DNA of 64,000 nt from Squalus acanthias (taxonomy: Eukaryota), in NCBI GenBank assembly GCA_030390025.1, contig CM059432.1, positions 45,386,001 through 45,450,000 of the forward strand, written 5' to 3'. Under the pieces are notes generated by a model that saw only the letters and a program-made list of their open reading frames with translations, was not told the DNA's origin and ran no database searches. How positions within the stretch are numbered: the first letter of the stretch is position 1; the number at the start of each line of letters is the position of its first letter. Below are positions 20,507 through 60,400 of this stretch, piece by piece. The position numbers and the translations under genes are program-made.

Positions 20507-20726
20507 TGATGCGGATTTGCTGGCGTTGGACTGGGGTGGACAAAAATGAGAAGTCGCACAACACCAGGTTATAGTCCAACAGATTTATTTAAAATTACAA
20601 GCTTTCAGAGCTATCCTGCCCCTTCTTCAGGTAAAGTTACTGTGAGAGAATCTACAAGAATTCACAGAATATAAACACAGAGAAAATGCAGAGATTCAAT
20701 CTTTCCCTACATCAAAGACACACTAA
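20507..20726 (-). mobile_element. Penelope-like element 3' end carrying a hammerhead motif
   Basis: 12-bp TSD cataaattacca (20495-20506 and 20727-20738). Same terminus as the 27.8-kb and 48-kb copies. Confidence 0.75.
20595..20634 (-). ncRNA. Minimal type I hammerhead ribozyme motif
   Basis: TTAC-CTGAAGA-A-GGGGC(aggata)GCTCT-GAAA-GC-T-T-GTAA. Confidence 0.7.
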
Positions 20727-20835
20727 CATAAATTACCAGATTTTATTGAATGCAATTTCAACTTGCAATACTGGGATTTGAATTCACAGCACAAAGTCAA
20801 AATACTGCAAATGTTGGAAATCTGAAATAAAAGAA

Positions 20836-21324
20836 AAACGACTTGCATTTATATAGTGCCTTTCACAACCACCGGACGTCCCAAAGTGCTTTACAGCCAA
20901 TTAAGTACTTTTTGAAGTGTAGTCACTGTTGTAATGTAGAAAACACTGCATCCAATTTGTCACTGTTGTAGGAAATGCAGCAGCCAGTTTGCACATCACA
21001 AGCTCCCACAAACAGCAATGTAATAATGACCAGATAATCTGTTTTTTTAGTGATGTTGATTGAGGGATAAACATTGGCCAGTACACCGGGGATAACTCCC
21101 CTGCTCTTCTTTGAAATAGTGCCATGGGACTTTTTGCGTCCACCTGAGACAGCAGACTTGGTTTAACGTCTCATCCGAAGGACGGCACCTCCGACAGTGC
21201 AGCACTCCCTCAGTTCTGCACTGGAGTGTCAGCCTAGATTTCTATGCTCAAGTCTCTGGAGTGGGACTTGAATCCACAACCTTCTGACTCAGAGGCGAGG
21301 GTGCTACCAACTGAGCCACGGCTG
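20836..21324 (-). mobile_element. DeuSINE (SacSINE1/AmnSINE1-like), near full length
   Basis: tRNA-like head gtggctcagttggtagc...gattcaagtccc, central domain ggatgagacgttaaacc...ccatggcactatt, and an L2-like tail. It splits a short Penelope-type end (about 20790-20835 and 21325-21383). Confidence 0.82.
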
Positions 21325-21424
21325 AAATATAAACAGAAAATGCTGGAAGTACTCAGCAGGTCAGGCAGCACCTGTGGAGAGAATTTACAATGTCTTGGTT
21401 GCTAGTCCAATACCATAACCACTA

Positions 21425-21826
21425 GAATCAAAGAATGGTTACAGCACAGAAGGAGGCCATTCAGCCCGTCATGCCCATGCTGGCTCTCTACAAGAGCACT
21501 TCAGCTAGTCCTACTCCCCAACCCTTTCCCCGTAGCCCTGCAAATCTTTTTCCTTCAGGTACTTATCCAATTCCCTTTCGAAAGCCACAATTGAGTCTGC
21601 CTCCTCCACCCTTTCAGGCAGTGCATTCCAGATCCTAACCACTCGCTGCGTAAAAAAGTTTTTCCTCATGTCGCCTTTGGTTCTTCTGCCAATCACCTTA
21701 AATCTGTGTCCTCTGGTTCTCGACCCTTTTGCCAATGGGAACAGTTTCTCTCTATCTACTCTGTCTAGACCCCTCATGATTTTGAACACCTCTATCAAAT
21801 CTCCTCTCAACCTTCTCTGCTCTAAG
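21425..21826 (-). mobile_element. CR1 3' end
   Basis: RGDLIEVFKIMRGLDRVDREKLFP...TRGHRFK...FFTQRVVRIWNALP. Confidence 0.88.
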
Positions 21827-24800
21827 CTGACAACTCTCCCACTTTAAAATTTACAAATATGGATTTGGCAATACAACTGTTCCGAGATTATTAATACACT
21901 CTGTGGAAAATTTCAAATGTTACTTAAAAAAAAATGCGTATACATTCTGAAAGCTACCATAGAAGATTAATCGGCATAAAGATCAGACCACATTCTTAAT
22001 TGCTTGATCACCTCAAGAACAAAATAATTTTAAGGACCAACCGTAATAAATTTTTAAAGAAATCTTTTTGACAGATAATTATTTTCATCTCCCAAGTGGA
22101 TTAATGATTTATAAAGATTTCCAAACACTTGTGCCAGTCTCAGTTGAGACTCTAAACTCTGGGCATTTTCTTGCAGTATAAAACTGCTTGTTTGATGTTT
22201 AATGATACACATTCAAACTTCAGCTTTGACCAGTAGGAATCTGACTAAGTGTAATGTTATTGCAGATGACATTCAGTAATCTGTACAATCTAATCTAGCT
22301 ACTAAAATCCCAAGACATTCAGCTCCACTAAGAAAACTCGGTAGAACTGACTGTTCATTTTTGGTACACAGGAGAAAGCTTAAGACACTGAAACAAAAGG
22401 GTTACTTTCTGATGATATTACAAACATGTTGCAGAAATGCTCTATTAATCTAAACTCTGCTCAGTTAGACAACCTTTTTTGCCCTGAGCTTAAGTAACTT
22501 CAAGTGCTGGTTGCTAGTGTGTTTGGGTCATTATGCCAAAAGCATTAGTTTCATGAGCAGCAGGTTTTATGGCAACGCAGTGGATATAATCAATCTGAGC
22601 ACTAACACAGACCTTCGCTGCAACAATTATCCCTTATCCAGACCGCCACCTGAATTTCTGGCTATTACTACTACTACTAACACTACTACTATTGCTGCAC
22701 CTACACCTACAACCACATACATTTGTGTAGTACCTTTAACGTAGAAAAATGATTCAAAGTGCTTCACAAATGCATGAAGGAAAAAAGTAGACACTGAGCA
22801 AAAGCAGGTATTAGGAGGAGTGATCAAAAACTTGGCCAAAAAGTGAGTCTTAAAAGGAGGAGAGTATCTGTTTTCTGGAAAGGGACACTTATCCCATTAA
22901 TGTCCAGAATTCAGCTCCTGTGGTGCAACAGGGTTACAACTGAAACCTCCCTCTGTTCACCAGGTGAAAAGATCCATGCCAGGTTTCTCAGCACAAAACA
23001 TTGGTTCATAGCTTGCCAATAAACCTAGAAAAAGTGGCCTTGTAAGCTTACAAAATATTGTGTCCCACAGTGCTCATTTTTTGACTTCTTGTGAAGGGAT
23101 ATTCATACCAATGAATCTTACAAACTCCAGGTTGGATCCAATGAGTGACTAATAGATACCATGAAGATAAAAAATACAAAGAGGCACTTCCCAATTAGGT
23201 GACATAACAACAGTATGCAAAAACAGACAACTATAATAAGGGTAGAGGTCTCACAAACGCCCCTGGTGGAGGATAGAAAAACTTGAAGGAATTGTACTGA
23301 AGTACCAGTGGGAAAATTAAAGATTTCCCATAGCCTCATACACATTCCAGCAACCTTGGCTTAGCTAGTGATCACCAGCTTTATATTTGGACTTCTATAT
23401 TTAAAAAAAGAGTCCCAGGGAACACCTGTCTGGGAAAGTTCCACAGGCAGGAGAAGCTTTGTTGGCAGCATTCTGTATCGATTTTTTGGGTCAATACAGA
23501 ATATTGATTTATAGTTGTGTGTACCTGGCATAAGTAAAGCTCAAGTTCTACCAATGTAAAGTGCTGTTGCAGTCAAAGAACTGCCCACATCTCTCCAGTT
23601 TTGTAAACAACGGATTTCAGCATGGACTAAATCAGCCTCATCCAGTCTACAAGTTTGAAATGGTTTGGACCAGTTTGAGTCCAGGAGTTACCAAAAAGGT
23701 AAGCAAGGCTGCAGCGTTTTGATGATTCTTCCACATAGTTTTCCCAAAATCCTTGCCGTTTGTTAGTTTTGGTAGTTTAGATGGAATTCCCGAATCCCAA
23801 GCAAGAAGCTAAATCTCATGTCCACCAAGTATCTAATTTGGTTTGTAACACACTACAGTTCCACATATTGATTGCTTAGCTCTAAAGTCAGTTGCATGGC
23901 TTACCACAATTATGTTGCATGAATCAAATTCACTTTTACTCATGGTCATTGGTATGAGGCTTTTCTCATCTTGTAGAGGGGCTGACTCCTCCTCCCCCAC
24001 CCGTCAAGGCAAAACTCAGGAGCAGCTTGGTACTGAGAGCATATTTGAGGAACATGGCAAAGATTTTTCTTCTGTTGATGCTAAATGCTTGGAGGAATGG
24101 TAAATGGAGCTATCTTGGTGTCGGATAACAATTGTTTCTTGATCTAGAGAATACTGGGGTTGATTTTCCTCAGCTCTGTACCCTGGCTATGCCTATTTCC
24201 TGGGCACAAAGCAGAGGAAAATAGGTGGAGCTACTTTTAGTCCATGTGTTGTTATCATTTTGATCCCCTTTATTGTCTTCCTACTTTATGGCTAGCCAAA
24301 TGTCAAAGTCCTATGGAATTCTATAAACTCGTTTTCATCAATATTTTTTGAATCAAATTCTAGAAAAATAGTCAAGAAAGTTATATATCCTGATTCCCAA
24401 CAACTAATGAATATACTTGGGAATGCTCCTGCATCATTACTAACTGCCGATACTATGGCTGCAATTTTCCCTACCTCGGCGGGTCCGTGGCGGGAGACAT
24501 CGGTGGTGGGTCTCGGCCCTGCTGTTGGCTCCCTCCCGGCCTCCGACATGACTTTCCCTTGATTGGGCTTGTTAAGCCCGCCCAGCGAGTTTCCCGGCCA
24601 ATTCAAGGAAGTGGGTCTGATGACGTCATTTATGACGCGTCATCAGCCGGTTTCCTTATAGGGACCATGCGCAAATTTACTTTGACATTTGTGCTGTCAG
24701 TGTTCTACAGCATTGAGCTGCTGCAGACACTGACAAGCACTGCACAGAGATGCAGGGCTGCACCCAGGCTTTCCCATGACTCCCTCCATATGCTTATGGA

Positions 24801-27800
24801 GGGAGTCACAGCATGCAGGGAGATTCTCTTCCCTTCCAATGGGCGGAAGAGATCTCCCTAGGAGATCAACACAGCCTGGTTGCACATTGCACAGGAGGGC
24901 ACAAGCAGGGATGTCGTCAGGAGGACCAGGCTGCAGTGGCGCAAACCTTTTAGTGACCTCGAGGGTAACAATCTCTGGATTATTGCCCGAGCCACATGCA
25001 AATTGGCATAGAAGCAGACAGATCAGGAGAATTAACATGTGGCTAAAGGGCTGGTGTGGGAAAGAGGGGTTCCTTTTCATGGGACACTGACACCAGTTCT
25101 GGGACAGGAAGGAGCTGTACCGATGGGGCCCGTGTTCTAGCGGAAAGGGTAAATAGGGAGGTGGCAAAGGCTTTAAACTAGTAAGATGGGGGGAGGGATC
25201 TACAAGAAACGTAGCCAGCCTAATTATAAACAAAACAGGAAAAGAGAGCATAGGAAAGAATAAAGTAAGGGAGGACATTGATGGCAAGGGAATAAATAAA
25301 GTTATAGAACAGGAGTCTAAAAAGATGGTTAAACATAAAGTGAGAGGAAATCCTATTAAAAATGAGTTAAACTATCTCTACAGCAATGCACACAGTGTCC
25401 GTAATAGAACAGGGGAGCTGGAGGCAATCATGCGTTGCGAGGAACCAGACATAGTAGGGATTACTGAGACATGGCTACAGAAAAATCAGGACTGGGAATT
25501 AAACATTGCAGTGTATAACATATTCAGAAAAGAGGAGAGGGAAAAAGGGGAGGTGGAGTAGCTGTACTTATTAGGGATAACATAATGGCAGTAGAAAAAG
25601 TGACGTAGCTATCAGCAAGACAAAAAATAGAATCCATATGGATAGAGATAAAAGATAATAAAGGACCAATCACATTAATAGGTGTAGTCTACAGACCACC
25701 TAATAGTGGAGGAAGAAATATGCAAGCAAATGAGGGAAATGAGTAAAAAACATAGAATAATCATCATGGGGGATTTCAACTACCCGAATATTAATTGGAC
25801 AGAAGAGGTAGGTAAAGGGGATAAGAGAATGGAGTTCCTACAATGTGCACTGGACTCCTTTCTAACCCAAAATGTGAAAAGCCCAACAAGGGAGGATTCG
25901 CTATTGGATCTAGTAATGGGGAATGAACCAGAGGAGATAAGAGAAGTAAAGGTAGGGGAACATCGAGGCAATAGTGAACATAATATAATATGCTTTAAGA
26001 TGATAATTTAGAAGGACATAAGTATGACGAAAACCAGGGTAATAGATTGAAGAAAAGCTGATTTTGAGGGGCTGAGACTAAAACATGGGAAAATAAAATG
26101 GGCACCAATATTGGCAAACAACGATGTAGAATAGCAATGGGAAACATTTAAAACGGTGTTCAACAGAGTGCAGGAACAATATTTTCTGCTAAAAGGAAAG
26201 AACAAACTAAACACTAATGAGACTCCATGGATGAATAAAGCTATAAAGGAACAATTGAGGGTAAGGAAAGAGGCATACATTAAGCACATAGACAGCAGTG
26301 GAGTGCATGATATGGGAGAATACGAAAATATTAGGAGAAAAGTCAAAAAAACAATTAGGAAGGCAAAGAAACATAGAAATATAGAAGATAGGAGCAGGAG
26401 TAGGCCATTCGGCCCCTCGAACCTGTTCCGCCATTTCATGAGATCACAGCTGGTCATCCAAATTCAGTACCCTGTCCCTGCTTTCTCCCCATATCCCTTG
26501 ATCCCTTTAGCCTTAAGAAATATATCTAAATCCTTCTTGAATATATTTAATGAATTGGCCTCAACTGCCTTCTATGGTAGAGAATTCCACAGGTTCACCA
26601 CTCTCTGGGTGAAGAAATTCCTCCTCATCTCAGTCCTAAATGGCTTACCCCTTATCCTTAGACTGTGACCCCTGGTTCTGGACTCCCCCGCCATCGGGAA
26701 CATCCTTCCTGCATCTAGTCTGTCTAGTCCTGTTAGAATTTTATATGTTTCAATGAGATCCCCTCTCATTCTTCTAAACTCTAGCGAATATAAGCCTAAT
26801 CGACCCAATCTCTCTTCATATGTCATTCCTGCCATCCCAGGTATCAGTCTGGTGAATCTTCGCTGCACTCCCTCCATGGCAAGAACATCCTTCCTCAGAT
26901 AAGGCGACCAAAACTGCACACAATACTCAAGGTGTGGTCTCACCAAGGCCCTGTACAACTGCAGCAAGACATCCTTGCTCCTGTACTCGAATCCTCTCGC
27001 TATGAAGGCCAACATACCATTTGCCTTCTTAACCGCCTGCTGCACCTGCATGCTTGCCTTCAGCGACTGGTGCACAAGGACACCCAGGTCTCGTTGCACT
27101 TCCCCTTTTCCCAATCTATTGCCGTTCAGATAATAATCTGCCTTCCTGTTTTTGCCACCAAAGTGGATAACCTCGCATTTATCCACATTATACTGCATCT
27201 GCCATGCATCTGCCCAATCAGCCAACCTGTCCAAATCATACTGGAGTTTCTCTGCATCCTCCTCACAGCACACACGCCCATCCAGCTTTGTGTCGTCTGC
27301 AAACTTGGAGATATTACATCTAGTTCCCTCGTCTAGATCATTAATATATATTGTGAATAGCTGGGGTCCTAGCACCGATCCCTGCGGTACCCCACTAGTC
27401 ACTGCCTGCCACTCGGAAAAAGACCCGTTTATTCCAACTCTTTGCTTCCTGTCTGCCAACCAGTTCTCTATCCAAGACAGTACCTTACCCCCAATACCAT
27501 GTGCTTTAACTTTGTACGCTAATCTCTTATGCGGGACCTTATCGAAAGCCTTCTGAAAGTCCAAATACACCACATCCACTGGTTCTCCCTTATCTATTCT
27601 ACCAGTTACATCCTCAAAAAATTCCAGTAGATTAGTCAAGCATGATTTACCTTTTGTAAATCCATGTTGACTTTGTCCGATCCTGTCACTGTTTTCCAAG
27701 TGCTCTGCTATTATATCTTTTATAATGGACTCCAGCATTTTCCCCACTACCGATGTCAGGTCTATAATTCCCCGTATTCTCTCTACCACCTTTTTTAAAT

Positions 27801-27829
27801 AGTGGGGTTACATTCGCTATCCTCCAATC

Positions 27830-28010
27830 TTTTGATGTGGAGATGCCGGTGTTGGACTGGGGTGGTCAAATGTGAGGAGTCGCACAACACCAGGTTATAG
27901 TCCAACAGCTTTATTTGAAATCACAAGCTTTCGGAGCGCTGATCCTTCGTCACCTGACGAAGGAGCAGCGCTCCGAAAGCTTGTGATTTCAAATAAAGCT
28001 GTTGGACTAT
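27830..28010. mobile_element. Penelope-like terminal fragment forming a foldback hairpin
   Basis: Arms 27897-27952 and 27955-28010 are reverse complements with one mismatch. Confidence 0.85.
27950..27986 (+). ncRNA. Minimal type I hammerhead ribozyme motif
   Basis: TCAC-CTGACGA-A-GGAGC(agc)GCTCC-GAAA-GC-T-T-GTGA. Confidence 0.75.
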
Positions 28011-28397
28011 TACATCTTTTATAATGGACTCTAGCATTTTGCCCACTATGTCAGGCTTACCGGTCTATAACTCCCCATTTTCTCTCTACCACCTTTTTTT
28101 AAATAGTGGGGTTACATTAGCTACCCTCCAATCCATGGGAACTGTTCCAGAGTCGATAGAATTTTGGAAAATGACCAGCAATGCATCTACTATTTCTAGG
28201 GCCACTTCCTTAAGTACCCTAGGATGTAGATTAGCAGGCCCTGGGGATTTATCAGCCTTCAATCCCGTCAGTTTCCCTAACACCAGTTCCTTACAAATAC
28301 TGATTTCATTCAGTTCCTCCCTCTCATTAGACCCTATGTTCCCCGACATCTCTGGGAGGTTATTTGTGTCCTCCTTTGTGAAGACAGAACCAAAGTA

Positions 28398-28822
28398 CAG
28401 GAAACTTTTGTTTATCCGGCATCGACGGGACCGGCGTGGTGCCGGTTTATCGAAAGTACCGGATAACGGAGAGTTATATCTACCGAGGCTATTTTTAACA
28501 AAGAGACTCCAGGCAGCGCGGGAGAATCAACTCCTGCTACTGCCGTGTTTCGGACTTCCGACAGCGCCAGGAGGTCGAGTAGTGGCACTTTTGAAAAGTA
28601 CCCCTACTGACTAAATCGGCGTTCGCGGACTCGGACTCGGACTCTGGATCGGCAACATTGCCGGTTATTTGAGAGGAGTTTTCGGAGCACTCGGCGTTCG
28701 CGGAGACTCGACTGCGACTCGGCAACATTGCCGGTTATTTGAGAGGAGTTTTCGGAGGATGATTTTTGCCGGTTAAGCGAGAATTCCGGATATTTGGGTG
28801 CCGGATAAACGAAAGTTTCCTG
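28398..28822. mobile_element. pogo/Tigger-like MITE inserted in CR1
   Basis: TIRs caggaaacttt...aaagtttcctg with a TA TSD. Removing it restores the CR1 sequence. Confidence 0.9.
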
Positions 28823-29984
28823 TATGTATTTAATTGGTCTGCCGTTTCTTTGTTCCCCATTATAAATTCCCCTGATTCTGACTGCAAGGGACCTACGCTT
28901 GACTTCACCAATCTTTTTCTCTTCACATATCTATAGAAGCTTTTGCAGTCAGTTTTTATGTTCCCTGCAAGCTCACTCTCATATTCTATTTTCCCCTTCT
29001 TAATTAATCCCTTTGTCCTCCTTTGCTGAATCCTAAACTGCTCCCAATCCTCAGGTTTACTGCTTTTTCTGGCAAATTTATATGTCCTCTCCTTGGATCT
29101 TATGCTATCCCTAATTTCCCTTGTTAGCCACAGTTGAGTCACCTTTTTTGTTTTATTTTTATGCCAAACAGGGATGAACAAATTCTGTAGTTAATCCATG
29201 CGATCTTTAAATGTTTGCCATTGCCTATCCACCGTCAACCATTTAAGTAATGTTCCCCAATCCATCCTAGCCAACTCGCACCTCATACCATCATAGTTTC
29301 CTTTATTTAAATTCAGGACCCTAGTCTCTGAGTCAACTACTTCACTCTCCATCTTAATGAAGAATTCTATCATATTATGATCGCTCCTCCCCAAGGGGCC
29401 TCGCACAACAAGATTGCTAATTAATCCTTTCTCATTACATAATACCCAGTCTAAGATGGCCTGATCTCCAGTTGGTTCCTCTACATATTGTCCAGGAAAC
29501 CATCCCGTATACACTCTAGGAATTCCTCCTCCACAGTATTGTTACTAATTTTGTTAGCCGAATCTATATGTAGATTAAAGTCCCCCATGATAACTGCTGT
29601 GCCCTTATTGCACGCGTCTCTAATTTCCCATTTAATGCCATCCCCAACCTCAGTATTACTGTTTGGGGGTCTGTATTCAATTCCCACTAACGTTTTCTGC
29701 CCCTTGGTATTTCTCAGCTCTACCCATACAGATTCCACTTCATCAGAGCTAATATCCTTCCTTACTATTGTTTTAATCTCCTCTTTAACCTGCAATGCTA
29801 CCTACCTCCTTTTCCTTTTTGTCTGTCCTTCCTGAATATTGAATACCCCTGGATGTTGAATTCTCAGCCTTGGTCACCCTGGAGCCATGTCTCCGTAATC
29901 CCAATTATATCATATCCATTTACATCTATTTGTGCAGCTAATTCATCCACCTTATTACGAATGCTCCTTGCATTAAGACACAAA

Positions 29985-30877
29985 GGGGTAAAAATTCACT
30001 TGGTTGCGCCATCCGTTAGCGCCTTAAGAGGGCGCTAATGGGGCGCAAAGCCGCTAACGCCCGGGCGCAGCGATGTTTGCGCCGCTCGAGAACTTAACTT
30101 GAGATTGTGCGGCGGCGCTAAAGCTTACCGCTGCGACCACCTGCGCGCGCAGATTGTGACGTCATTCCATGGTGCAACGCCCTTGGGGCGCCCCGTAGCG
30201 GAAATTGAGTGGCGCCCCCTGCCTTACCGCCTGGCGCTTCCAACGACCAGAAGACTGGAACGCTATCAATTGCTGTGGGGCTGGGGGGGGCGCTATTTAA
30301 AGGGGGCCTCTTCCTGTCTTTTATTGTTGGTGGCATTTTTGAACTACGCATTCTGAGAGAGAGAGGGAGAGACTTCTGGAGAGATTCAACGTTGTGTGAA
30401 GGAGTTTTGGGTACTGAGCAGCACTTTGCAGGTTCATTTTGATTTGCCATTCCTTGTATCGATTTAGCAGAGACCGTGGGAGCTGCACTCTGAGCTCTTT
30501 GCCTGGTGCTCTCCATTGTTCTTTCCAGCACATTTGATGTGCAAGTCTCTCCAGGCCGAGATTCAAGGCAGCAATGAACAGGATGTGGATGGAAAGCAAG
30601 ATTAACCATCCCCTTTAAGAACTGGCCCGTGCCATTGTGTGTGTGTTCCATTGCTGACTGACATTACATGAGCTTCGCCAGCGCTCCGAGTTAGCGCCTC
30701 ACTGCTCGGCCTTTGCGCCTTAAGAGAGGTGTGCAGCGCCTGCTTTAGCGCTCCACTCACCTCCCGGGGCGGTAAAAGTGAAGTTTCCCGTCAGTGCCGA
30801 TAATTAGCGCCAGGCGCTAAAATTTGCGTCCGGACGATATTTGCGCCCCAAATGAGGCGCGACCTAATTTCTACCCC
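29985..30877. mobile_element. CpG-rich non-autonomous Harbinger-like element inserted in CR1
   Basis: TIRs ggggtaaaaatt...aatttctacccc with an AAA TSD. Removal restores CR1 ttaagacacaaagccttcag. Confidence 0.88.
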
Positions 30878-32168: not shown

Positions 32169-32306
<138 letters not shown>

Positions 32307-44777: not shown

Positions 44778-46126
44778 AACTGCATTTTAATTCTCATATA
44801 GCAATAGTTGAACTGTAAACGTGATTAGAATTATTTGCTTGGGTGGAAAGTAAATACTGACACAGACTAGTTGTGGCAAATGGCCCGTCTCCAAGTTTCA
44901 TATCAAGTATTGGGCTCTTTTCCTCTTCATACTAGAACTAAAACCTCATCTTGGTTAACTGGCAACACTTGGAACACTTTAAATTGAGGTGGTCCTGCAA
45001 CTCCAGTAAAATGACACTCTCAATAAAACAACTAGTCACTCCTGGAAATGGATGGGAGAGGTGGTGGATTGCCAAGTCACATGATATACTGAGAACTGAA
45101 GAACCTTTATTCTTGTATTATTTCTGAATATAGATAGAATCATTTTTTTGAAACTATGCACTTGTGGAATACATCAATACATTTGTCCTACTTATGAAGT
45201 AATTTAACCGTACCCAGAAGGGGAAGCAGCGAAAATAAGAGAAAAAATGTTTAAAATAGACTTCCTGGTAAATTTACTTTATGGTGGGTTGTAGAACACT
45301 ACACTAGGCAAAATTGAGATGCCACCACAGCTCAGCAATGAGAAAAATACCGCCATTCAAAGCTCTAGTTATGCGGACAGACTATAGTGAAGGTATTCTC
45401 TGTTAACTATTTGTAGGAAAATCATAAATGCATTCTTTATACATGTCATTTACGATTTTACTACATAGGAAATCATCCCCCTCCTAGATGTGAACCTGTT
45501 GCAGATGCTGAATGACCTGCTGAGTATTTCCAGCATTTTCTGTTTTTGCTTGAAATCTTCATTAGTTAGCAATTAAACAGATCATCAATTGGAAAAGATT
45601 GAACAGCATGGAGATGACAAATTGAAGCTAATTATAAAAGAGGGAATATGTGAAGTATCCAAATAGCAAGACTCTCATCTGATTTCAATGTCCAGTTTCA
45701 CCTGTTTTGTGAGTCTCTTCTCTGCTCTGACTGATGCTCATTTCACAGTTGTTACGTTCATGCAGAAGTTAGTACAAAGTAGATATCTAGCCAATGAGAA
45801 ACAAAGCATATGAAAGTTGGATTGGTTCCCATACCTGACTGTACCTTGTCTAATGCAAGAGTACTTTTTTGTAGTAACAGTGAGAATATCACTCAGAGTA
45901 CTGGTATATTACTGCTAATAGTTGTATATATTTTTTTAAATTGCAATAACTTCACTAGATTTTTGTTGTTGTAATCATTCAAAAAACTGTGCTGCATCTT
46001 TATATTAAAAATTATCTGTAGCTGTACACCAAGTAATATTTTACAGCATTTCTACTCTAATAACATGGTAAAATTTATAGCACATTAGTACTCAGATGAA
46101 AAGTAGCCATTGTAATATGCAGAACT

Positions 46127-46492: not shown

Positions 46493-46516
46493 TAAATTCA
46501 AGCTACAACCGATTAC

Positions 46517-47504: not shown

Positions 47505-48810
47505 TGGCTAAAGGACAGTTAGCAGGGAGTAGTGGTGAACAGTTGTTTTTCAGACTGGAGGGAAGAGTACAGTGGTGCCCACCAGGGGTCAGTGTTGGGA
47601 CCACTGCTCCTTTTGATGTATATTAATGACCTGGAATTAGGTATACAGGGCATAATTTCAAAGTTTGCAGATGACACAAAACTCAGAAATGTAATAAACA
47701 ATGAGGATAGTAACAGACTTCAGGAGGACATGGACAGACTGGTGAAATGGAAAGATACATGGCAGTTGAAATTTAACGCAGAGAAGTGTGAAGTGATTAT
47801 TTTTGGTTGGAAAAATGAGGAGAGGCAATATAAACCAAAGGTACAATTTTAAAGGGGGTGCAGGAACAGAGAGACCTGGGAGTGTACATACACAAGTCTT
47901 TGAAGGTGGCAGGACAAGTTGAGAAGGCTGTTAAAAAGGCATACAAATCCATGACGATATAAATAGAGGTCATGATGCGGAGATGCCGGTGTTGGACTGG
48001 GGTGGACAAAATTGAGAGGTCGCACAACACCAGGTTATAGTCCAACAGTTTTATTTTAAATCACAAGCTTTTGGAGTTACAACTCCTTTGTCGGGTGAAG
48101 TGAGGACACTTCACCCGACGAAGGAGTTGTAACTCCGAAAGCTTGTGATTTAAAATAAAACTGTTGGACTATAACCTGGTGTTGTGCGACCTCTCAATTT
48201 TGATATAAATAGAGGCATAGAGTACAAAAGCAAGGAAGTTTTGCTAAACTTTTATAAAACACTGATTAGGCCCGAGCTGGAGTATTGTGGCCAATTCTGG
48301 GCACCACACTTTAGGAGGGATGTCAAGGCCTTGGGGTGCAGAGGTGATTTACTAGAATGGTACCAGGGATGAAAGACTTCAGTTATGTGGTGAGACTAGA
48401 GAAACTGGGGTTGTTCTCCTTAGAGCAGAGGTTAAGGGGAGATTTGATAGAGGTATTCCCATGAAGGGTTTTGACAGAATAAATAATGAAAAATGGTTTC
48501 CAATGCCAGAAGGGTCGGTAACTAGAGGACACAGTTTTAAGGTTAATTGGCAAAAGAACCAGAGGCGACATGAGGAAACATCTTTTACGCAGCAAGTTCT
48601 GATGATCTGGAATGCACTGCCTGAAAGGGTGGTGGAAACAGATTCAGTAATAACTTTCAAAAGGGAATTGGATAAATACTTGAAGGGGAAAAATTTGCAG
48701 GGCTATGGGGAAAAAGCAGGGGAGTGAGACTAATTGGGTTGCTCTTTCAAAGAGTTGGCACAGGCATGATGGCCTCCTTCTGTGCTGTATCATTCTATTA
48801 TTCTATGACC
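47505..48810 (+). mobile_element. CR1 3' portion hosting a Penelope-like hairpin
   Basis: QGSVLGPLL..MYINDL, ISKFADDTKL, LEYCGQFWAP, TRGHSFK. Confidence 0.88.
47970..48201. mobile_element. Penelope-like terminal fragment forming a foldback hairpin with 96-bp arms
   Basis: 14-bp TSD gatataaatagagg (47956-47969 and 48202-48215). Arms 48007-48102 and 48107-48202 differ at two positions. Hammerhead-like motif at 48111-48148. Confidence 0.88.
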
Positions 48811-49742: not shown

Positions 49743-50133
49743 ACTGCTGTATAACACCAGTGTTTGTAGTAAGACTGCGGGCTAAAAACTGCCAGAACAT
49801 TCTGTCACAGGGAGCAACAAAGGAGACCTTCCTACCCACATCTCTGAACAATACAAGCAAAACAGCATCAGCTCCTAGTCCAAAAATCTTCACGAGGTAC
49901 ATACTGACATCAGTACTTTTGTCCAGTTAAAGCAACACAAAATTATAATACTAAATGATCTTTCCATTGATTCAATTTAGTATAGTTACCTTTACTGCAA
50001 TAACCTACTCAAATCTTGAAGTGAATTACTGGAAAAAGGCAGCTGTGACTACAATGCACAATTATGCAAAATTAATGAAAATAATTAAGCAAAATTAAAG
50101 AAAAGCTTTGGCTGAGTACAACTCATCCACTTA

Positions 50134-50781
<648 letters not shown>

Positions 50782-51636
50782 TACTAACAATCAACAGCTA
50801 TCTTAAGATTACCAATAAAAATATAATTTATTAAGGCATTTCACCAGTATAATCACTGTTTCACTTAATGATTGATGTAACCAGTATAAATTTCAACAAT
50901 AAGTCTGGTTACTTCCACTACACATACAAAAACATTCCTAAATGTTTTGCTAAAGTTAAAAAACTTTACACCAAATAATCTTTCAGTAATACCTTGCAAA
51001 TCATTTCCAAGTTTAAAAATGCTCGCTTGACAGCACTCTTACATTGAAGCCCAAAGATTGTAGGTTCAAGCTCCACTCCAGGACATAAAACTACTATTTG
51101 AAGCACTGGAAGTTCACCTGGTATCTTGGCTACCGGTTCACCCTCAGCCTACACCATGAGAGATTAACTGGTCATTTGCCTCTTTGGTGTTTGTGGAACC
51201 TTGTGTGCAAAACGGTTACTACATTTGCTCACATAAGTCATTCCAATTTTCATTGTATTGGAGCGTTGAAATGTGAAAAGACATCTCAAAAGATATAATT
51301 GCAAGTCTGTTTTTCAATCAATTCACAAATTACTCGACAGATGCACCTTATCTGTTCAGAGTATTAGCTGAACATTCCCTGAACACATGGACAGTAACTT
51401 GAAATCAACAGTACCTTAAAATAAAATTAAAAAGGGTTATAATTTTCTTCATGGCTGCACTAAGAAATACAATTATTCATAGAATCTTAAACAAAAAACT
51501 AATCCCTGGAGTTCACCCCAGTTTTCATACCTGATGCAGTGTGGACTTTACCAGTTAGGAATACAGCAGCAGTGGGAATTAAAGTTTTCAAAGGTAGTTA
51601 CTCCAGGAACGAAAATCTTAACTCCATTACACATTA

Positions 51637-51797
51637 GCCAGTAATTTCCACAGGGATTCTCCTGATCTCCCATTGTAACTTCAGTGGAAGATCACAGAAA
51701 CCTCAGAGGAATGGCGTAAATTGTCATTCACACCGTTTCCCTGGAGTTTCCACTGAAGTTATGGCAGATCGGGATCTGCTGCAGAAATTATATCCCA
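51637..51797. repeat. Short palindromic MITE-like element
   Basis: Inverted arms taacttcagtggaa / ttccactgaagtta, plus flanking imperfect complementarity. Confidence 0.55.
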
Positions 51798-52302
51798 CTG
51801 CAAATGTCAACTTTTTGATTAGATGTTCTTTTTTAAAATTGTTTTTTCAAAAGTTTACATGCACACAAATTTTGTGAGACTATTATATACTTTGATTGCA
51901 CAACCCTTCCTCAGGGCGGGCAACATGGTGGTGCATATACCAAGAGCATGGTGAAGGAGAAAGGAGATCCTGGTCCTTGAGGTACACACATAGGCCATTA
52001 GACTGCTGTTGACTGATTTATCAGAGGTTGTTCTATTATGAAGAAGCAGTTTTGTCTCATGCTCGTCCAAGAGAAGGGCCCAGAGTCATGAGCTCCAGGG
52101 ATAGCAGGCTTGAGGGGCCGTATGGCCTACTCCTACTTCTTATGATAGGCACCTGCCTGTTCTTCAATCATTCAGATCAACCGTTATCCCATAGGCATTT
52201 CATCATAAGCTTTGGCAGCTGCGTGAAACAGCACTATGATTTCACCAGTGACAATTCCAAACCAGCCAAACATCAGTTATTTTTGATGTCAGTCATTCTT
52301 AT

Positions 52303-53087
52303 ACAACAACTTGTATTTACATAGCACCTTTAACGTAGTAAAGCGTCCCAAGGCGCTTCACAGAAGTATTTTAAGACAAAATATTTAACACCGAGCCAAA
52401 TAAGGAGAAATTAGGGCAGGTGACCAAAAGCTTGGTCAAAGAGGTAGGTTTTAAGGAGCGCCTTCAAGGAGGAAAGAGAGGTGGAGAGGTTTAGGCAGGG
52501 AATTCCAGAGCTTGGGGCCTAGGCAACTGAAGGCACGGCCACCAATGGTTGAGCGATTATAATCAGGGATGCTCAAGAGGGCAGAATTAGAGGAGCGCAG
52601 ATATCTCGGGGGGTTGTGGGGCTCAAGAAGATTAGAGATAGGGAGGGGCGAAGCCATGGAGGGATTGGAAAACAAAGATGAGAATTTTGAAATCGAGGCG
52701 TTGCTTAACCGGGAGCCAACGTAGGTCAGCAAGCACAGGGGTGATGGTTGAACGGGACTTGGTGCGAGTTAGGACACGGGCAGCCGAGTTTTGGATCACC
52801 TCAAGTTTACGTAGGGTAGAATGTGTTGGTATAGTCAAGTCTAGAGGTAACAAAGGCATGGATGAGGGTTTCGGCAGCGGATGAGCTGAGGCAAGGGCGG
52901 AGACGGGCGATGTTATTGAGGTGGAAATAGGTGGTCTTAGTTATGCCGCGGATGTGTCAGAAGCTCATTTCAGGGTCAAGTATGACACCAAGGTTGCGAA
53001 CAGTGTGGTTCAGCCTCAGTCAGATGTTAGGGAGAGGGATGGAGTCAGTGGCTAGGGAACGGAGTTTGTGGCGGGGACCGAAAACAT
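52303..53087 (-). mobile_element. L2 3' portion
   Basis: LRKLEVIQNSAARVLTRTKSRS...LPVKQRLDFKIL. Confidence 0.9.
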
Positions 53088-53286
53088 TATTATAAAACAT
53101 CATGTGCTTATAAATGGGCTTATACTGGGTGTTAATGTGCATGATTATATTATATTATTCCTAACATTTCCTTAAAGTTCACAGTTGTGCAACAATAAAA
53201 TGTCATCACCTGCAAAGCAAACCAGAACTCTGTCCTTATCCCTATCCACCCTAAATCCAGCTTTAGCCTTGGCAAAAGATAACATT

Positions 53287-54052
53287 GGGGCAGAAATTCG
53301 GCTGTTGTCGGGTGAGTACGCACTGTGTACTCACCCGTGGACGGAACAAAAGTGCTGGTTTCTTGCATGCACTGCGCATGCACGGGAAACCGGCACTTCC
53401 GTTCCCCTGAGGAAAGGGGTTCAGAGGTCGAACGTGCACGCCGGAGAGGCTGCGCGTTCGCCTCGCACTTCGGATTTTTTTACAGGTTCCTCCGTGAAGG
53501 TAAGCACGGAGAAGATACACTTTTAAAAAGGATGCGCAAGGCCTTCTTTTAACAAGGTAAGTGTTGATTTTATTAAAATTTTAACATTTTTTCACAGATT
53601 TATCTTTTTTAATTACTTTAAAGAAAGGTAAGTTTAGTTTTAGCCCCGTTAAAAAATGTAATTAATTTTTTCAAAAATTAAATTTTTTTGTTTAAAATAG
53701 TTAATTAATGTAATTTACAGTTATTTTAAAAATGTGATGTTTTTAAAAAAATTTATTTGTAGTTTTAGGGATGTTTTGGGGCTGATCTGTATTCATAGAT
53801 TTGACAGGTCTTCCTGTCAAATCTATGAATGAAAGATGGTCTGCTGCCATTGGCTCTCCATGGCCCACGTGATCCCAGGGGCTGCATCGCACTAACTACG
53901 CCCCTGGGATACACAAGCACTGCGCGCCGGCAGCTGCAGGAGACCCAAGAGCCAAAGTCCCCGTGGGCCCAGAGGTCAACGGCAGGCGCGGTAGGTAGGT
54001 GCGCGCGCGATCCTTGCACCCGTGGGAAGCCAGGGAGCCGAATTTCTGGCCC
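53287..54052. mobile_element. Non-autonomous Harbinger-like element
   Basis: TIRs ggggcagaaattcggct...agccgaatttctggccc with an ATT TSD. CpG-rich ends and an AT-rich core. Confidence 0.85.
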
Positions 54053-54175
54053 ATTATCAATATAAACAAAGAAAAATACTGCAGATGCTATGAATCTGAA
54101 GAAAAAAAAAGCTGGAAACACCCGGCAGATCAGGCATCTGTTGAAAAACAGAAGTCAGTTAGTCAATATTTTAAA

Positions 54176-54445
54176 AAAGACTTGCAATTATATAGCACCT
54201 TTCACGACCTCAGGCTATCCCAAAGCACTTTACAGCCAATGAAGTACTTTCGAAGTGTAGTCGCTGCTGTAATGTCAGAAATGTGACAGCCAATTTGCGC
54301 ACAGTAAGCTCCCACAAACAGCAATGTGATGACCAGATAATGTTCTTTTTTAGTGATGTTGATTGAGGGATAAATATTGCCCAGGACACCGTGGATAACT
54401 CCCCTGCTCTTCTTTGAAATAATGCCATGGGATCTTTCACGTCCA
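54176..54445 (-). mobile_element. DeuSINE 3' half
   Basis: Homologous to 20836-21150. Confidence 0.8.
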
Positions 54446-55025
54446 GCTTTTCAGAGGGAGCTAGATTAGAGTGAGGGAGGTAAGTGGAGAAACTGACATG
54501 GCCCAATGTCACACCAGCAGTTCTCAATAAAAGGATCAAGAGCATAGGAGGCCAGAGCAAGGGCTCCAGGTGGATTGGGGAGGCTAAAGACAGGGAAAAG
54601 GGTTAGATGCGAGGGGAAGCCTTCTTTTGACCTGAAACAAGACAACTCCAGTTTCTCCAATGCTGCCTGGCCTGCTGGATGTTTGCCAACGTTATCACTG
54701 TTGTAAGGAAACTTGACTGATATGCTACTGCAATACTGAGGGAGTGCTGTACTAAAAACAGAAAATGCTGGAAATACTCAGCAGGTCAGGCAGCATCTGT
54801 GGAGAGGAGTTAACATTTCAGGCCGATGATCTGGTCATTGTTATTTGTGGGCCCTAGCTGTGCACATTGGCTGCTGCATTTCCTACAACAGTGACTACAC
54901 TTCAAAATAATGAATTAACTGTAAAACGCTTCAGGACATCCTGAGGTTGTGAAAGGCACTTTATAAATGCAGGCTTTCCCTGCCTATGTACTTGCTTAAA
55001 ATGTTACATCTCTTTAACTTTTTCC

Positions 55026-55062
55026 AGTTCTGATGAAAGGTCATCGACCTGAAACATTAACT
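55026..55062 (+). ncRNA. Minimal hammerhead motif (family 2) in a short Penelope-type end (about 55020-55127)
   Basis: AGTT-CTGATGA-A-AGGTC(atc)GACCT-GAAA-CA-T-T-AACT. The stem III palindrome has decayed from ACGT to ACAT. Confidence 0.65.
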
Positions 55063-55282
55063 CTGTTTCTCTCTCTCCACAGATGCTGCCTGACCTGCTG
55101 AGTGTTTCCAGCATTTTCTGTTTTTATTATAAAGGCAACATGCAAGCCTTTCCCTTTCTCGGGCTGGGTGTGAATGAACCATTTCTTCAAAACTTGAGAC
55201 CGCCCCTTCCCGGAACAAAGTTCCCAATTGACGCGGTGAAGTACCACTGACTCATTAAGACACGTTCCTATTTGCATCTCAC

Positions 55283-55369
55283 CCGCTCGTTTATGCTAAA
55301 CGGCGGAGCCGGTGTCACAGTAAATCTGCGCCACAGTCTCGACAACTGTCGGCCTGCACTAACCGCCAT
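55283..55369 (-). CDS. DECR1: DECR1 exon 1 (MAVSAGRQLSRLWRRFTVTPAPPFSINER), putative mitochondrial targeting peptide
   Basis: gaaATGG Kozak context and a phase-0 GTGAG donor compatible with exon 2. The peptide is Arg/Ser-rich and acid-poor, and lies in the CpG island. Total CDS is 1026 nt (341 aa). Confidence 0.85.
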
Positions 55370-55541
55370 TTCTTCTCCAAACTCGATTCAAACCCCCCGA
55401 ACTTTATTGACAACCCCGCTGGACAGTCTCTCTCCACCAGCCTAGCCCCGCCCCTCAAGCGCGCGTTGCTCCTCCGCAGCGCCAGGGCGGTCACGTGGCG
55501 ATGAGGCGGGGACGTGGCCCGTGAGTCGGAGTGTGTTGGCG
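55370..55541. promoter_or_regulatory. CpG-island bidirectional promoter shared by DECR1 and NBN
   Basis: 172 bp between divergent ATGs. GC boxes ccccgcccc (55446-55454) and gggcgg (55485-55490), E-box CACGTG (55492-55497). CpG-rich from about 55200 to 55720. Confidence 0.85.
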
Positions 55542-55575
55542 ATGTGGGCGCTGAAGCCGTTAGCCCCGGGTGGAG
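55542..55575 (+). CDS. NBN: Nibrin exon 1 (MWALKPLAPGG)
   Basis: MW.L.P N-terminus as in NBS1 (MWKLLPAAGPAGG). Phase-1 GT donor compatible with exon 2. Syntenic position. Confidence 0.85.
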
Positions 55576-55748
55576 GTACCGCGCGGGCTGCTGATGGTGG
55601 CCTCTGATTATTTTCCGTGTTATTTTCACCAGTGTCAAGGTCCCGTCGGTTTCGGTGCACGAGCTGACGGAGAGTAACCGCGCCTGCGCGGGCGCGGTCT
55701 GCAGCATCAACTGGCCGGAGTGCTGGGGAAACTAGTGTGTCCCTGATA

Positions 55749-56292
55749 TAACAACAGAAAACGCTGGAAAAACTCAGCAGGCCAGGCAGCATCCGTGCAG
55801 AGAGAAACAGAGTTAACGTTTCAGATCGAAGACCCTTCGTCAGAACTGGAAAAAAAGCAGGAAATGAAATAGATTTTAAAGCAAGTTCGGGCTGGGAAAA
55901 GGGGAGGGGATGAAAGAACAAAAGGGAAGGTCAGTGATGGGATAGAAAGCAGGAGAGATTGAGAGATATTCAAGGCAAGAGGAGGTGGAAATGGGACAGG
56001 TTGAGGTACAAAGGACGGCTCTAAATGAAGTGTGAATTGTGCTGGCAGAATGAAAGACAGCTGCCATGTGGGAGGGAAGAAAAAAGGCCAAACAAAAGTG
56101 GATAAAAAAAATAAAATAAAAATATATATGTATATGTGATAGGGGCCGGGGTTATGATCTGAAATTGTTGAACTCTTGAGTCCAGAGGGCTGTAGAGTGC
56201 CTAATCGAAAGATGAGGTGCTGTTCCTCGAGCTTACGCTGAGCTTCCGTGGAACAATGCAAGAGGCCGAGGACGATGAGGTCTGAGTGGGAA
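55749..56292 (-). mobile_element. Penelope-like element 3' end (GIY-YIG C-terminus plus 3' region)
   Basis: EAQRKLEEQHLIFRLGTLQPSGL on the minus strand. The 3' region carries a hammerhead motif. Confidence 0.85.
55811..55847 (-). ncRNA. Minimal type I hammerhead ribozyme motif (family 2), intact
   Basis: AGTT-CTGACGA-A-GGGTC(ttc)GATCT-GAAA-CG-T-T-AACT. Confidence 0.75.
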
Positions 56293-56419
56293 TGGTCCTG
56301 ATCCGGGGCGCGGGTTGCTGACCCATGCGTGAAGTCAGCTGGATGTGTGGTCGGAAGGAAGGAGAATGGGGACCAGTTTTGACTGGCTGGACAGGAAGTA
56401 CAAACTACACCTAAAAGAA

Positions 56420-56862
56420 AGGAAGACTTGCATTTGTGTAGCGACTTTCACGACCACCGGAAGTCCATAGCGCTTTACAGCCAGCTAAGTACTTTTGAAG
56501 TGTACTCACTGTTGTAATGTAGGAAACTCAGCAGCCAATTTGCACACAGCAAGCTCCCACAAACAGCAACGTGAGAATGACCAGACATTCTGTTTTTAGT
56601 GATGCTGATTGAGGGATAAATATTGGCCAGGACACCGGGGAGAACTCCCCTGCTCTTTGAAATAGTGTCGTGGGATCTTTTACATCCACCTGAGAGAGCA
56701 GACAGGGCATCTGTTTAATGTCTCATCCGAAAGACGGCACCTCCGACCGCGCAGCACTGCACTGAGTGTTAGCCTAGATTTTTGTGCTCAAGTCTCTGGA
56801 GTGGGATTTGAACGCAGAACCTCCTGACTCAGCCGAGGGTGCTACCAACTGAGCCACTGGCA
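56420..56862 (-). mobile_element. DeuSINE, near full length
   Basis: Homologous to 20836-21324, including the tRNA-like head. Confidence 0.82.
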
Positions 56863-57439
56863 CTAATGAGCTGTAACCTATGGAGTGGGATGGAGAGACG
56901 TAACCTACAGGATATGGGATAAGAACATAGGAACAGGAGTAGGCCATCCAGCCTCCTCGAGCCTTTTCCGCCATTCAATGAGATCATGGCTGATCTGTAT
57001 CCTAACGCCATCCATCTGCCTTAGCTCCACATCCCATAATACCCATGGCTAACAAAAATCTATCTCAGATTTAAAATTATTAATTGAGCTTGCTGAAGAG
57101 TTGGGAATATGGACAGTGAAAGGCAAAAGTAGTCTAAAATAGTATACACCAGAGGTGGTGTGTCTTGAAGCAGATAGGAGCGATGTTATAGATAATGCAG
57201 GGTTGCTGTATTTATAAATGAATGCACAAAGCAATAGAAATAAAGTCAGGGAATTAGAGGCAGTAGTTGGAATGTAGGAATATGATTTTATATCCTTGAT
57301 CCTTGATGCAGGAAAGTGATTGGGGTAAGGATAACCAGATTGTGTCAGGAAAGGACAGAGCGTACAAACAAAGAAGTGCACTAACAAATAGGGTCCGGGT
57401 AAGAAAAAATGGTAAGACAAATAGGACCATAGTACAAAA

Positions 57440-60400
57440 AAATATTAAGATGTCTAAAAATGTTAAAGACAAATCTAAAGGCACTGTATCTGAATGCACA
57501 AAGCATTCGTAATAAGGTAGACAAATTAACAGCGCAAATAGATGTAAACGGATACGGATCAGCCAGGCGGAGGAGGAGGGTGGTGGTGGATGGGGACTGG
57601 TTGGGCCTCTGTTCAAGGAAGAAGCGGAGCGCCCTCAGGCCATCCTGGTGGGGGATGGAGGTGTAGAGGGATTGTACGTCCATAGTGAAAAGGAGGCGGT
57701 TGGGGCCGGGAAACTGGAAACTGTTAAAGTGGCGGAGGGCGTCAGAAGAGTCGCGGATGTAGGTGGGAAGAGACTGGACAAGGGGAGAAAAAGTAGAGTC
57801 GAGATAGGAAGAGATAAGTTCCGTGGGGCAAGAACAGGCTGAAACGGTGGGTCTACCAGGGCAGTCCTGTTTGTGGATCTTGGGAAGGAGGTAGAAGCGG
57901 GCTGTGCGGGGTTGGGGAACTATGAGGTTGGTGGCCGTGGGGGGGAAGATCTCCAGAGGAGATGAGGTCAGTGACAGTCTTGGAAATGGTGGCTTGATGT
58001 TCGGTAGTGGGGTCATGGTCCAGCTGGAGGTAGGAGGAGGTGTTGGAGAGTTGCCGTTCAGCTTCCGCTCAGCGTAAGCTCGAGGAACAGCACCTCATCT
58101 TTCGATTAGGCACTCTACAGCCCACTGGACTCAACATAGAGTTCAACAATTTCAGATCATAATTTCGGCCCCTATCACATACATATATATATATATATAT
58201 ATATCCACACTTTTTGTTTGGCCCTTTTTTTCTTCCCTCCCACATGGCAGCTGTCCTTCATTCTGCCAGCACAATTCACATTTCATCTAGAGCCATCCTT
58301 TGTTCCTTAACCTGTCACATTACCACCTCCTATTGCCTTGAATATCTCTTAATGTCTCTTAATCTCTCCTGCTTTCTATCCTATCACTGACCTTCCCTTT
58401 TGTTCTTGCATCCCCTCCCCCATTTCCCAGCCCCTAAACCTGCCTTAAAATCTACTCCATTTCCTACTTTTTTCCAGTTCTGACAAAAGGTCTGCGACCT
58501 GAAACGTTAACTCTGTTTCTCTCTCCACGGATGCTGCCTGGCCTGCTGAGTTTTTCCAGCATTTTCTGTTGTTATTTTGGATTTCCAGCATCCACGGTAT
58601 TTTGCTATTATATTAATTAATAATCTTGTTGTGCAGGGTCCTTTAGGGAAGAGTGACCAGAACATAATAGAATTCTTCATTAAGATGGAAAGTGAAGAAG
58701 TCCAATCTGAAACTAGGGTCCTAAATCTAAACAAAGGAAACTACGAAGGTATAAGGAGTGAGTTGGCTATGATAGATTGGGGAGCTTCATTAAAAGGCAT
58801 GACGGTGGATAGGCAATAGCTAACATTTAAGGAACGAATGCATGAATTGCAACAGTTATACATTCCTTTCTGGCGCAAAAACACAAAAGGAAAAGCGGCC
58901 CAACCATGGTTAACAAAAGAAATTAAGGATAGTATTAGATCCAAGGAGTCATATAAAGTTGCCAGAAAAAGTAGCAAACCTGAGGATTGGGAGCAGTTTA
59001 GAGTTCAGCAAAAAAGGACCAAGAGATTGATTAAGAGGGGAAAAATAGACTATGAGAGTAAACTTACAAGGAACATAAAAGCGGATTGTAAAAGCTTCTA
59101 CAAGTATGTAAAAAGAAAAAGATTAGTGAAGACAAATGTAGGTCCCTTACAGTCAGAAACGGGAGAATTTATAATGGGGAACAAGGAAATGGCAGAGCAA
59201 TTAAACAAATACTTTGGTTCTGTCTTCACGGAAGAGGACACAAATAACTTCCCAGAAATGCGAGAGAACCAAGGGTCTAGTGAGAAGGAGGAATTAAAGG
59301 AAATTAGTATTAGTAAAAAAATAGCGCTTGAGAAATTAATGGGACTGAAAGCCGATAAATCCCCAGGGCCTGATAATCTGCATCCCAGAGTAGTAAAAGA
59401 GGTAGCCATGGAAATAGTGGCTGCATTGGTTGTCATCTTCCAAAATTCTATAGATTACCGAACAGTTCCTGCAGATTGGAGGGTGGCAAATGTAACCCCA
59501 CTATTTAAAAAAGGAGGGAGAGAGAAAACGGAACTACAGACCGGTTAGCCTAACATCAGTAGTAGGGAAAATGCTAGAGTCTATTATAAAGGATGTGATA
59601 ACAGGACACTTAGAAAATATCAACAGGATTAGACAAAGTCAACATGGATTTATGAAAGGGGAATCGTGTTTGACAAACCTGGAGTTTTTTGAGGATGTAA
59701 CTGGTAGAATAGATAAGGGAGAACCAGTGGATGTGGTGTATTTGGATTTTCAGAAGGCCTTTGATAAAGTCCCACATAAGAGGTTAGTGTGCAAAATTAA
59801 AGCACATGGGATTGGGGGTAATATACTGGCATGGATTGAAAATTGGTTAACAGACAGAAAACAGAGAGTAGGAATAAATGGGTCTTTTTCGGGGTGGCAG
59901 GCGGTGATTAGTGGGGTACCGCAGGGATCAGTGCTTGGGCCCCAGCTATTCACAATATATATCAATGATTTGGATGAGGGAACCAAATGTAATATTTCCA
60001 AGTTTGCTGACGACACGAAACTAGGTGGGATTGTGAGTTGTGAGGAGGATGCAAAGAGGCTTCAAGGCGATTTAGACAAGTTAAGTGAGTGGGCAAATAC
60101 ATGGGAGATGCAGTATAACGTGGATAAATGTGAAGTTATCCACTTCGGTAGGAAAAACAGAAAGGCAGAGTATTATTTAAATGGTGATAGATTGGGAAAT
60201 GTTGATGTACAAAGGGACCTGGGTGTCCTTGTACACCAGTCACTGAAAGCAAACATGCAGGTGCAGCAAGCAGTTAGGAAGGCAAATGGTATGTTGGCCT
60301 TCATTGCAAGAGGATTTGAGTACAGGAGCAAGGATGTCTTACTAGTGTTATACAGGGCCTTGGTGAGACCACACCTGGAGTAGTGTGTGCAGTTTTGGTC

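Follow-up and report, generated by a model that had tools for sequence, protein, structure and literature searches.

Minimal type I hammerhead motifs on the ends of two Penelope-like element families in Squalus acanthias

A stretch of 64,000 nucleotides from Squalus acanthias (assembly GCA_030390025.1, contig CM059432.1, positions 45,386,001 to 45,450,000 of the forward strand), referred to here as the window, contains six short motifs that look like minimal hammerhead ribozymes, and it raises the question of what these motifs are and which elements brought them there. A reading of the letters alone (the sequence-only reading) had placed them in two families on Penelope-type ends and had proposed independent, ribozyme-tipped retroelement lineages with many short copies of a retrozyme-like or short interspersed nuclear element (SINE)-like kind. 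With a probability of about 90%, we consider the six to be minimal type I hammerhead motifs that belong to the pseudo-long terminal repeats (pLTRs) of two homologous and recently active families of Neptune-type Penelope-like elements (PLEs), the window copies being truncated or back-to-back insertion products. All six motifs were confirmed at the claimed positions and on the claimed strands:

20595..20634, minus strand: family-1 minimal hammerhead motif; core intact, U-A variant of stem I, first stem II pair G-U.
27950..27986, plus strand: family-1 minimal hammerhead motif with the full consensus; 5′ arm of stem I at an inversion junction.
48111..48148, plus strand: family-1 hammerhead motif; C at position 4, stem II closed by a U-A pair; belongs to a subfamily that has 1,605 exact matches.
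55026..55062, plus strand: family-2 hammerhead motif; stem III palindrome lost (ACAT).
55811..55847, minus strand: family-2 hammerhead motif; core intact, G-U as first pair of stem II.
58476..58512, plus strand: family-2 hammerhead motif; A at G8.

The assignment to Penelope-type ends was borne out by intact elements with the motif in both pLTRs, and the existence of two separate, very abundant families by match counts across the 3.71-Gb genome. Family 1 yielded 67,532 and 13,047 core-intact matches (80,579 together), against 36 and 16 for the reversed-pattern controls, and family 2 yielded 61,156 against 98; these are numbers of motif matches, in which a head-to-head insertion counts twice. 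Protein searches detected long open frames for both families, and ten stretches per family were then surveyed for intact elements, those of family 2 being picked for their long frames. Five of the ten family-2 stretches carried a frame of 1002-1004 residues flanked by two direct motifs at a distance of about 3,200 bp, and their repeats were 99.4-100% identical. In L107, a family-2 element with a 1004-residue frame and a motif spacing of 3,200 bp, the 1,213-bp repeat was 99.9% identical, and L278, also of family 2, proved to be a triple tandem. For family 1, the intact copies L156 and L276 both had a 921-residue frame, with motif spacings of 3,120 and 3,114 bp, respectively.

Both families thus encode one open reading frame (ORF) that holds a reverse transcriptase (RT) plus a C-terminal GIY-YIG endonuclease with internal cysteines and is flanked by direct repeats that each contain the motif. 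In Pfam, RVT_1 was matched by both proteins and GIY-YIG also by that of L107, some of these matches lying below Pfam's cut-off, and a CX4CxxC linker, conforming to the pattern CX2-5CxxC, separates the RT from the endonuclease in both. The two proteins are 32% identical over 882 residues, and judged by their sequences the families are separate members of one kind with homologous proteins. The nearest named relatives of the family-1 protein come from sharks and are 80-94% identical to it. Furthermore, we observed partial tandems, inverted 5′-truncated partners, an optional tail and a short target duplication, all of them Neptune-type traits. Neptune-clade PLEs with an endonuclease (EN+), as described in part by Craig et al. 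2021 (PMC8557442), share the C-terminal GIY-YIG, the CX2-5CxxC linker, a DKG motif, the partial tandems, the inverted 5′-truncated partner and a one-sided tail of 30-40 bp (statements taken from this paper, and from PMC11167929, PMC3846280, PMC3088659 and 10.64898/2026.07.22.740005, refer throughout to parts of each source). On these sequence traits, both families are EN+ PLEs of Neptune-type architecture that have been recently active.

How well do the six motifs keep the hammerhead core? A strict descriptor, which demanded a stem I of 4 bp, CTGANGA, a single additional base, at least 4 bp in stem II and GAAA-NN-T-H, matched four sites in the window (20595, 27950, 55026 and 55811) and nothing in 200 dinucleotide-shuffled versions of it. 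The claim that all copies fit one pattern was wrong for two of them: the motif at 48111 reads CCGACGA, with C at U4, and that at 58476 reads CTGACAA, with A at G8, so that the core of CUGANGA, GAAA, A15.1-U16.1 and H17 is present in the other four. The full consensus of the sequence-only reading holds for three of the six, failing in these two and in 55026. A palindromic stem III (15.2-16.2, with no loop) was found in five copies, 55026 having ACAT and not ACGT, while the extra nucleotide between A9 and stem II is an A in all six. CpG decay probably accounts for ACAT in 55026-55062 and for the first stem II pair G-U in 20595-20634, and the G8A change in 58476-58512 is most likely CpG decay after insertion. 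In every motif of the intact elements L107, L156, L276 and L278 the same core is intact. Two additional, damaged family-1 motifs on the opposite strand (27921-27957 and 48061-48098) had been missed earlier. A check of the window against Rfam (E<=1) gave no hammerhead match, a scan that is uninformative for minimal forms. That two families should share the extra A and the palindrome had been presented as a surprise; both features already belong to the class consensus published in 2014, NNN CUGANGAH G..C GAAA N-palindrome-NU H NNN (PMC4209133), and the proteins of the two families are homologous.

Covarying stems had also been claimed, and this claim stood for two pairs of family 1. From 138 copies, 104 passed a filter for the true 5′ flank and gave 34 haplotypes, 16 of which were seen at least twice. 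Among these 16 recurring haplotypes, pair 3 of stem I is C-G in 11 and U-A in 5, and pair 5 of stem II, the last one, is C-G in 12 and U-A in 4. At both of these pairs the two sides have truly changed together, and the changes come back as subfamilies. The first stem II pair, G10.1-C11.1, is found in all 16, whereas variation is seen at N7, in loop II (3-9 nt) and at H17 (C or U); the other stem changes are G-U. Two supposed cases of covariation dissolved on inspection: GGGGC/GCTCT in family 1 represents two one-sided changes, one of them probably CpG decay because sister copies read GCTCC, and AGGTC/GGGTC in family 2 is a one-sided change from A-U to G-U. In a hand-picked alignment of 12 rows (the row of L285 lacking the 3′ letters of stem I), 99% of the cells pair, as compared to 22-47% in slid controls. 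When the six window monomers were folded in silico, stem II formed in all of them and stem I in those of family 1. Covariation thus lends the predicted structure modest support, and for family 1 only; a stronger argument is the occurrence of one core in two families with unrelated stems.

Several observations weigh against our interpretation. In family 2, the 15 haplotypes obtained from 74 of 99 copies included no two-sided change, the pair that opens stem II is A-U or G-U where G-C is usual, and the three window monomers fold into a different hairpin. In family 1, pair 4 of stem I is broken in 4 of the 16 recurring haplotypes, the covariation consists of two transitions that may each be a single event, and the conservation of the core is partly built in, as the haplotype search pattern demanded an intact-looking core. 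The number of two-sided pairs in the 12-row alignment did not exceed that of shuffles (294/500), and none of eight folds was significant relative to shuffles (z from -1.66 to +0.15). The clade was assigned from motifs and not from a tree with named references, and the linker finger occurs in both Neptune and Nematis. Lastly, a subfamily with a changed core, described below, has spread well, which leaves room for no more than weak selection on fast cleavage.

We next consider where the elements end. The term 'ribozyme-tipped' did not hold, since the elements end about 50-110 nt beyond the predicted cut. In family 1, 53 of 91 3′ ends lie at +50-64 and 32 at +90-99, and in family 2, 34 of 57 lie at +60-74 and 19 at +95-109. 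These two groups correspond to the published optional tail (PMC8557442, PMC3846280) and match the two internal RT start sites of Poseidon from Anolis (PMC11167929). No 5′ end at the predicted cut was present among 100 listed family-1 copies anchored downstream of it. Together with the ends beyond the cut, this suggests that uncut RNA is the likely template. The 5′ ends, sampled from intact-core copies (matches from the top of one contig's list together with randomly chosen stretches, both arms of a pair being counted), span from 0 to more than 300 nt upstream of the core. The GIY-YIG end was retained within 450 nt upstream in 36 of 92 family-1 and 21 of 56 family-2 copies, the rest breaking at varied points, and 37 of the 56 family-1 copies without it have an inverted partner. 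A start no more than 10 nt upstream of C3 was seen in 23 of 92 family-1 and 12 of 56 family-2 copies, and in the next 20 nt there were 10 and 3, respectively. This pile-up is located at the 5′ edge of stem I and not at the predicted cut, and unsampled variants of the untranslated region (UTR) could inflate its first bin (0-10 nt).

A close parallel is Poseidon of Anolis carolinensis (Frangieh et al. 2024, PMC11167929), which shares the layout and the internal priming, has two 3′ ends located downstream of its hammerhead and no boundary at the cut, and of which ribozyme mutants still inserted in vitro. Its hammerhead overlaps the start of the ORF, as in family 2; the first ATG of family 1, in contrast, lies about 90 nt beyond the predicted cut, at the end of the tail. 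Unlike both shark families, Poseidon lacks the linker finger. Building on this work and on the distribution of 3′ ends, we propose that the element protein would nick DNA and begin reverse transcription at an internal point of the RNA that lies downstream of a hammerhead left uncut; each copy would therefore retain the motif, with or without a tail. The short copies would arise where synthesis drops off early or switches template, most frequently at stem I's 5′ edge. In source elements, the motif may be under selection as a slow ribozyme assisted by dimerization or by protein: where source copies lie in tandem, two motifs separated by 3.1-3.2 kb would pair via the palindrome and cut slowly, trimming tandem or read-through transcripts to units of 3.1-3.2 kb, and cutting would not be required before insertion. 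Inserted copies would afterwards decay neutrally. Slow cutting of paired motifs was proposed before (PMC4209133), and the dimers in that study cleaved weakly.

The two core changes found in the window have different histories. G8A gave 930 matches, versus 16,500 with G8 for the matching pattern, and nearly all of these are single arms, which fits CpG decay after insertion. In contrast, U4C gave 1,605 exact matches, spread over three loop variants, versus 230 with U4, and 96 of 100 listed U4 matches share one loop type. The arms of U4C pairs are 97-100% identical and linked to ORF sequence. U4C marks a young subfamily, and its abundance, near-identical arms and ORF linkage argue that the change became fixed in a source lineage which continued to spread; none of the 17 stretches inspected held a full-length U4C copy with two repeats. 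The change likely weakens cutting. U4C is also known from a viroid, as a variant whose activity in vitro is strongly reduced and which nonetheless remains infectious (PMC3088659), and our search found no further paper on U4C in hammerheads. The core variant in the covered parts of PMC4209133 is a different one, U3-A8. As a tentative proposal, more doubtful than probable, the U4C subfamily first fixed the core change and then outgrew its U4 sibling sevenfold while branching into three loop variants; if true, it would be a natural in vivo test in which Penelope elements retrotranspose without needing fast self-cleavage. Given the 5′ ends that accumulate at the stem I edge in both families, the motif would then serve mainly as a landmark for RNA start or protein binding, and a large class of short non-coding copies would result directly from priming at the 5′ repeat.

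Conceivably, the motif is no longer a working ribozyme at all and has been retained as a structural signal, for protein binding, transcript start or translation start. We regard this as unlikely, albeit the most serious of the alternatives. The growth of the U4C subfamily to 1,605 matches speaks for it, as do the insertion boundaries, which never fall at the predicted cut, the position of the first ATG of the intact family-2 frame inside the core, with the frame reading through the motif, and the cleavage of only one of nine Xenopus dimers (10.64898/2026.07.22.740005). However, families with proteins only 32% identical and with unrelated stems keep the core, the extra base, the palindrome and the NUH site; the U4C viroid variant remains infectious (PMC3088659), and the Anolis motif cleaves upon addition of protein (PMC11167929). 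With regard to translation start, the first ATG of the 1004-residue frame lies at L107:3331-3340 in the youngest family-2 subfamily, and intact sister frames (L110) read ACG there. A pyrimidine tract followed by CAG before the family-2 core (L107:3300-3330; window 58460-58479) resembles a splice acceptor that overlaps stem I, and among 15 of 24 joints listed, all from contigs, there was no GT..AG joint to the stem I arm.

It is very unlikely that the short copies constitute a self-standing non-coding family of retrozymes or SINEs, copied from short copies by the Penelope protein in trans and possibly via a small RNA circle. Such a family could account for the starts within 10 nt of C3 and for the short palindromic units, common and about 150-230 bp long, that have target duplications, and animal retrozymes do originate from pLTRs (10.64898/2026.07.22.740005). 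These non-LTR retrozymes (Li et al. 2026), one cartilaginous fish being a reported host, are likewise non-coding and pLTR-related, with a type I hammerhead; they consist of tandem monomers that each carry the hammerhead, whereas the window copies are dispersed single or head-to-head ends and include no tandem monomers. Tandems outside the window were either whole coding units or a 1.68-kb repeat that had acquired one PLE end: at L032-L037 (G000:C1:6.99-7.13 Mb), a 1,678-bp tandem unit contains a family-2 3′ end with the hammerhead, giving direct motif pairs 1.68 kb apart. A SINE would be expected to have a fixed 5′ end and a lineage of its own without coding relatives; here the 5′ ends are variable and identical motif haplotypes occur on ORF-bearing copies. 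Of 19 short head-to-head pairs that were fetched, most show target duplications of 8-14 bp, and all junctions differ except for two that are alike. One head-to-head family-1 insertion, L295 (G000:C1:6536134-6536179), is centred exactly on the 4-nt stem III palindrome. The short copies are thus truncated or inverted ends of autonomous elements, and a separate SINE or retrozyme family was not found.

A joint that leads from L107:3601 to 6461, equivalent to about 3261 in the 5′ repeat, was present in the contigs of three of four runs (two studies, two organisms). This loop back across the motif could be taken in favour of a circulating non-coding unit, and may represent a family-2-derived tandem unit or circle of 340 nt that contains the hammerhead. 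It was seen solely in contigs of other organisms, where a circle and a genomic tandem are indistinguishable, and was not found among the 40 best genome matches, inspected as a list. Two of the runs with this joint also have small deletions at 3510 and 3587.

Finally, chance matches or products of neutral decay unrelated to ribozymes can be dismissed, for although Rfam gave no match and the folding energies are unremarkable, the absence of matches in 200 shuffles, the genome counts relative to the reversed patterns, which settle that the motif is real, and its fixed position in both pLTRs leave next to no room for them.

The insertions that carry the motifs in the window were delineated as follows:

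20507..20726, minus strand: single-arm, 5′-truncated family-1 PLE 3′ end, with a piece of the 3′ UTR, the hammerhead and the tail to +95.
27833..28013, arms on both strands: head-to-head family-1 insertion within RT sequence of a long interspersed nuclear element (LINE).
47970..48201, arms on both strands: head-to-head family-1 insertion of the U4C subfamily; second, decayed motif at 48061-48098 (minus).
54753..55128, arms on both strands: older family-2 ends, with a decayed inverted arm at 54753-54832 (minus), an unrelated repeat and an arm at 54975-55128 (plus).
55745..56294, minus strand: family-2 PLE 3′ end, with a frameshifted GIY-YIG C-terminus, the 3′ UTR, the hammerhead and the short end at +70.
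57559..58069, minus strand: inverted RT segment of a family-2 element, 95.9% identical to L107 over 511 nt and recognized also in translation.
58067..58615, plus strand: family-2 PLE 3′ end, with the GIY-YIG C-terminus (stop at 58160-58162), the 3′ UTR, the hammerhead and the tail to +107.

The single arm at 20507-20726 is 96-98% identical to sister copies in L285 and is bounded by a 12-bp target duplication (20495-20506 and 20727-20738). The insertion at 47970-48201 is self-inverted over 196 nt at 96% and has a 14-bp target duplication (47956-47969 and 48202-48215). That at 27833-28013, self-inverted over 120 nt at 95%, consists of a tailed arm at 27833-27952 (minus), with the 5′-clipped motif at 27921-27957, and a short arm at 27950-28013 (plus). 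Around it, a LINE overlap of about 125 bp (27708-27829 and 28007-28133) was considered as a target duplication and rejected, because its two parts are just 84% alike, as compared to 95% for the arms of the insertion; two distinct LINE copies were likely joined here by a deletion or rearrangement that also clipped the forward arm at +31. The end of the GIY-YIG frame was found upstream of both the 55811 and the 58476 motif, and the RT segment at 57559-58069 is a 5′ inversion joined to the following 3′ end at 58067-58615. The window copies are likely truncated or back-to-back products of autonomous elements, and they are probably inactive, since none has a direct partner in the same insertion, three carry defects and a transcript through a head-to-head pair would likely fold the motif into a long hairpin.

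Among 12 window ORFs, Pfam matched just three, all LINE-type RTs, and the short PLE pieces gave no match. Three long LINE-type RT copies (RVT_1; 8205-10602, 26477-29425 and 58612-60879) are 72-87% alike, and several Penelope ends are inserted in or beside such repeats. Short decayed family-2 fragments without a recognizable core lie at 21324-21382, 45504-45547, 54450-54704 and 20798-20840. In addition, a tRNA-like head at 17577-17635 (Rfam, 31.6 bits) is probably part of a tRNA-derived SINE, and bodies of related repeats lie at roughly 20830-21234, 54173-54448 and 56412-56758.

Hammerheads of this kind have been known since 2014, and the find itself changes little. The PLE hammerheads of PMC4209133 share the extra base before stem II, a stem I of 3-4 bp, the motif in both pLTRs about 3 kb apart, and many single copies as well as opposite-strand pairs 100-700 bp apart. 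In the portions of that paper covered, family 1 and the lamprey example agree in stem I, a coelacanth example opens stem II with A-U as family 2 does, and Table S1 and Fig. S3, as far as covered, list no shark. A literature search that covered few subscription papers, and not Repbase, found no paper on these shark Penelope families, and we make no claim of novelty. The value of the families lies in the material: the more than 140,000 motif matches, compared with about 4,000 in coelacanth and about 9,000 in Xenopus under different search rules (PMC4209133), are found in one genome together with young, source-like copies whose repeats are 99-100% identical and with natural variants, namely U4C, loop II of 3-9 nt and C or U at the cut. 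With this material it can be tested whether the mobility of Penelope elements depends on cleavage by their hammerheads.

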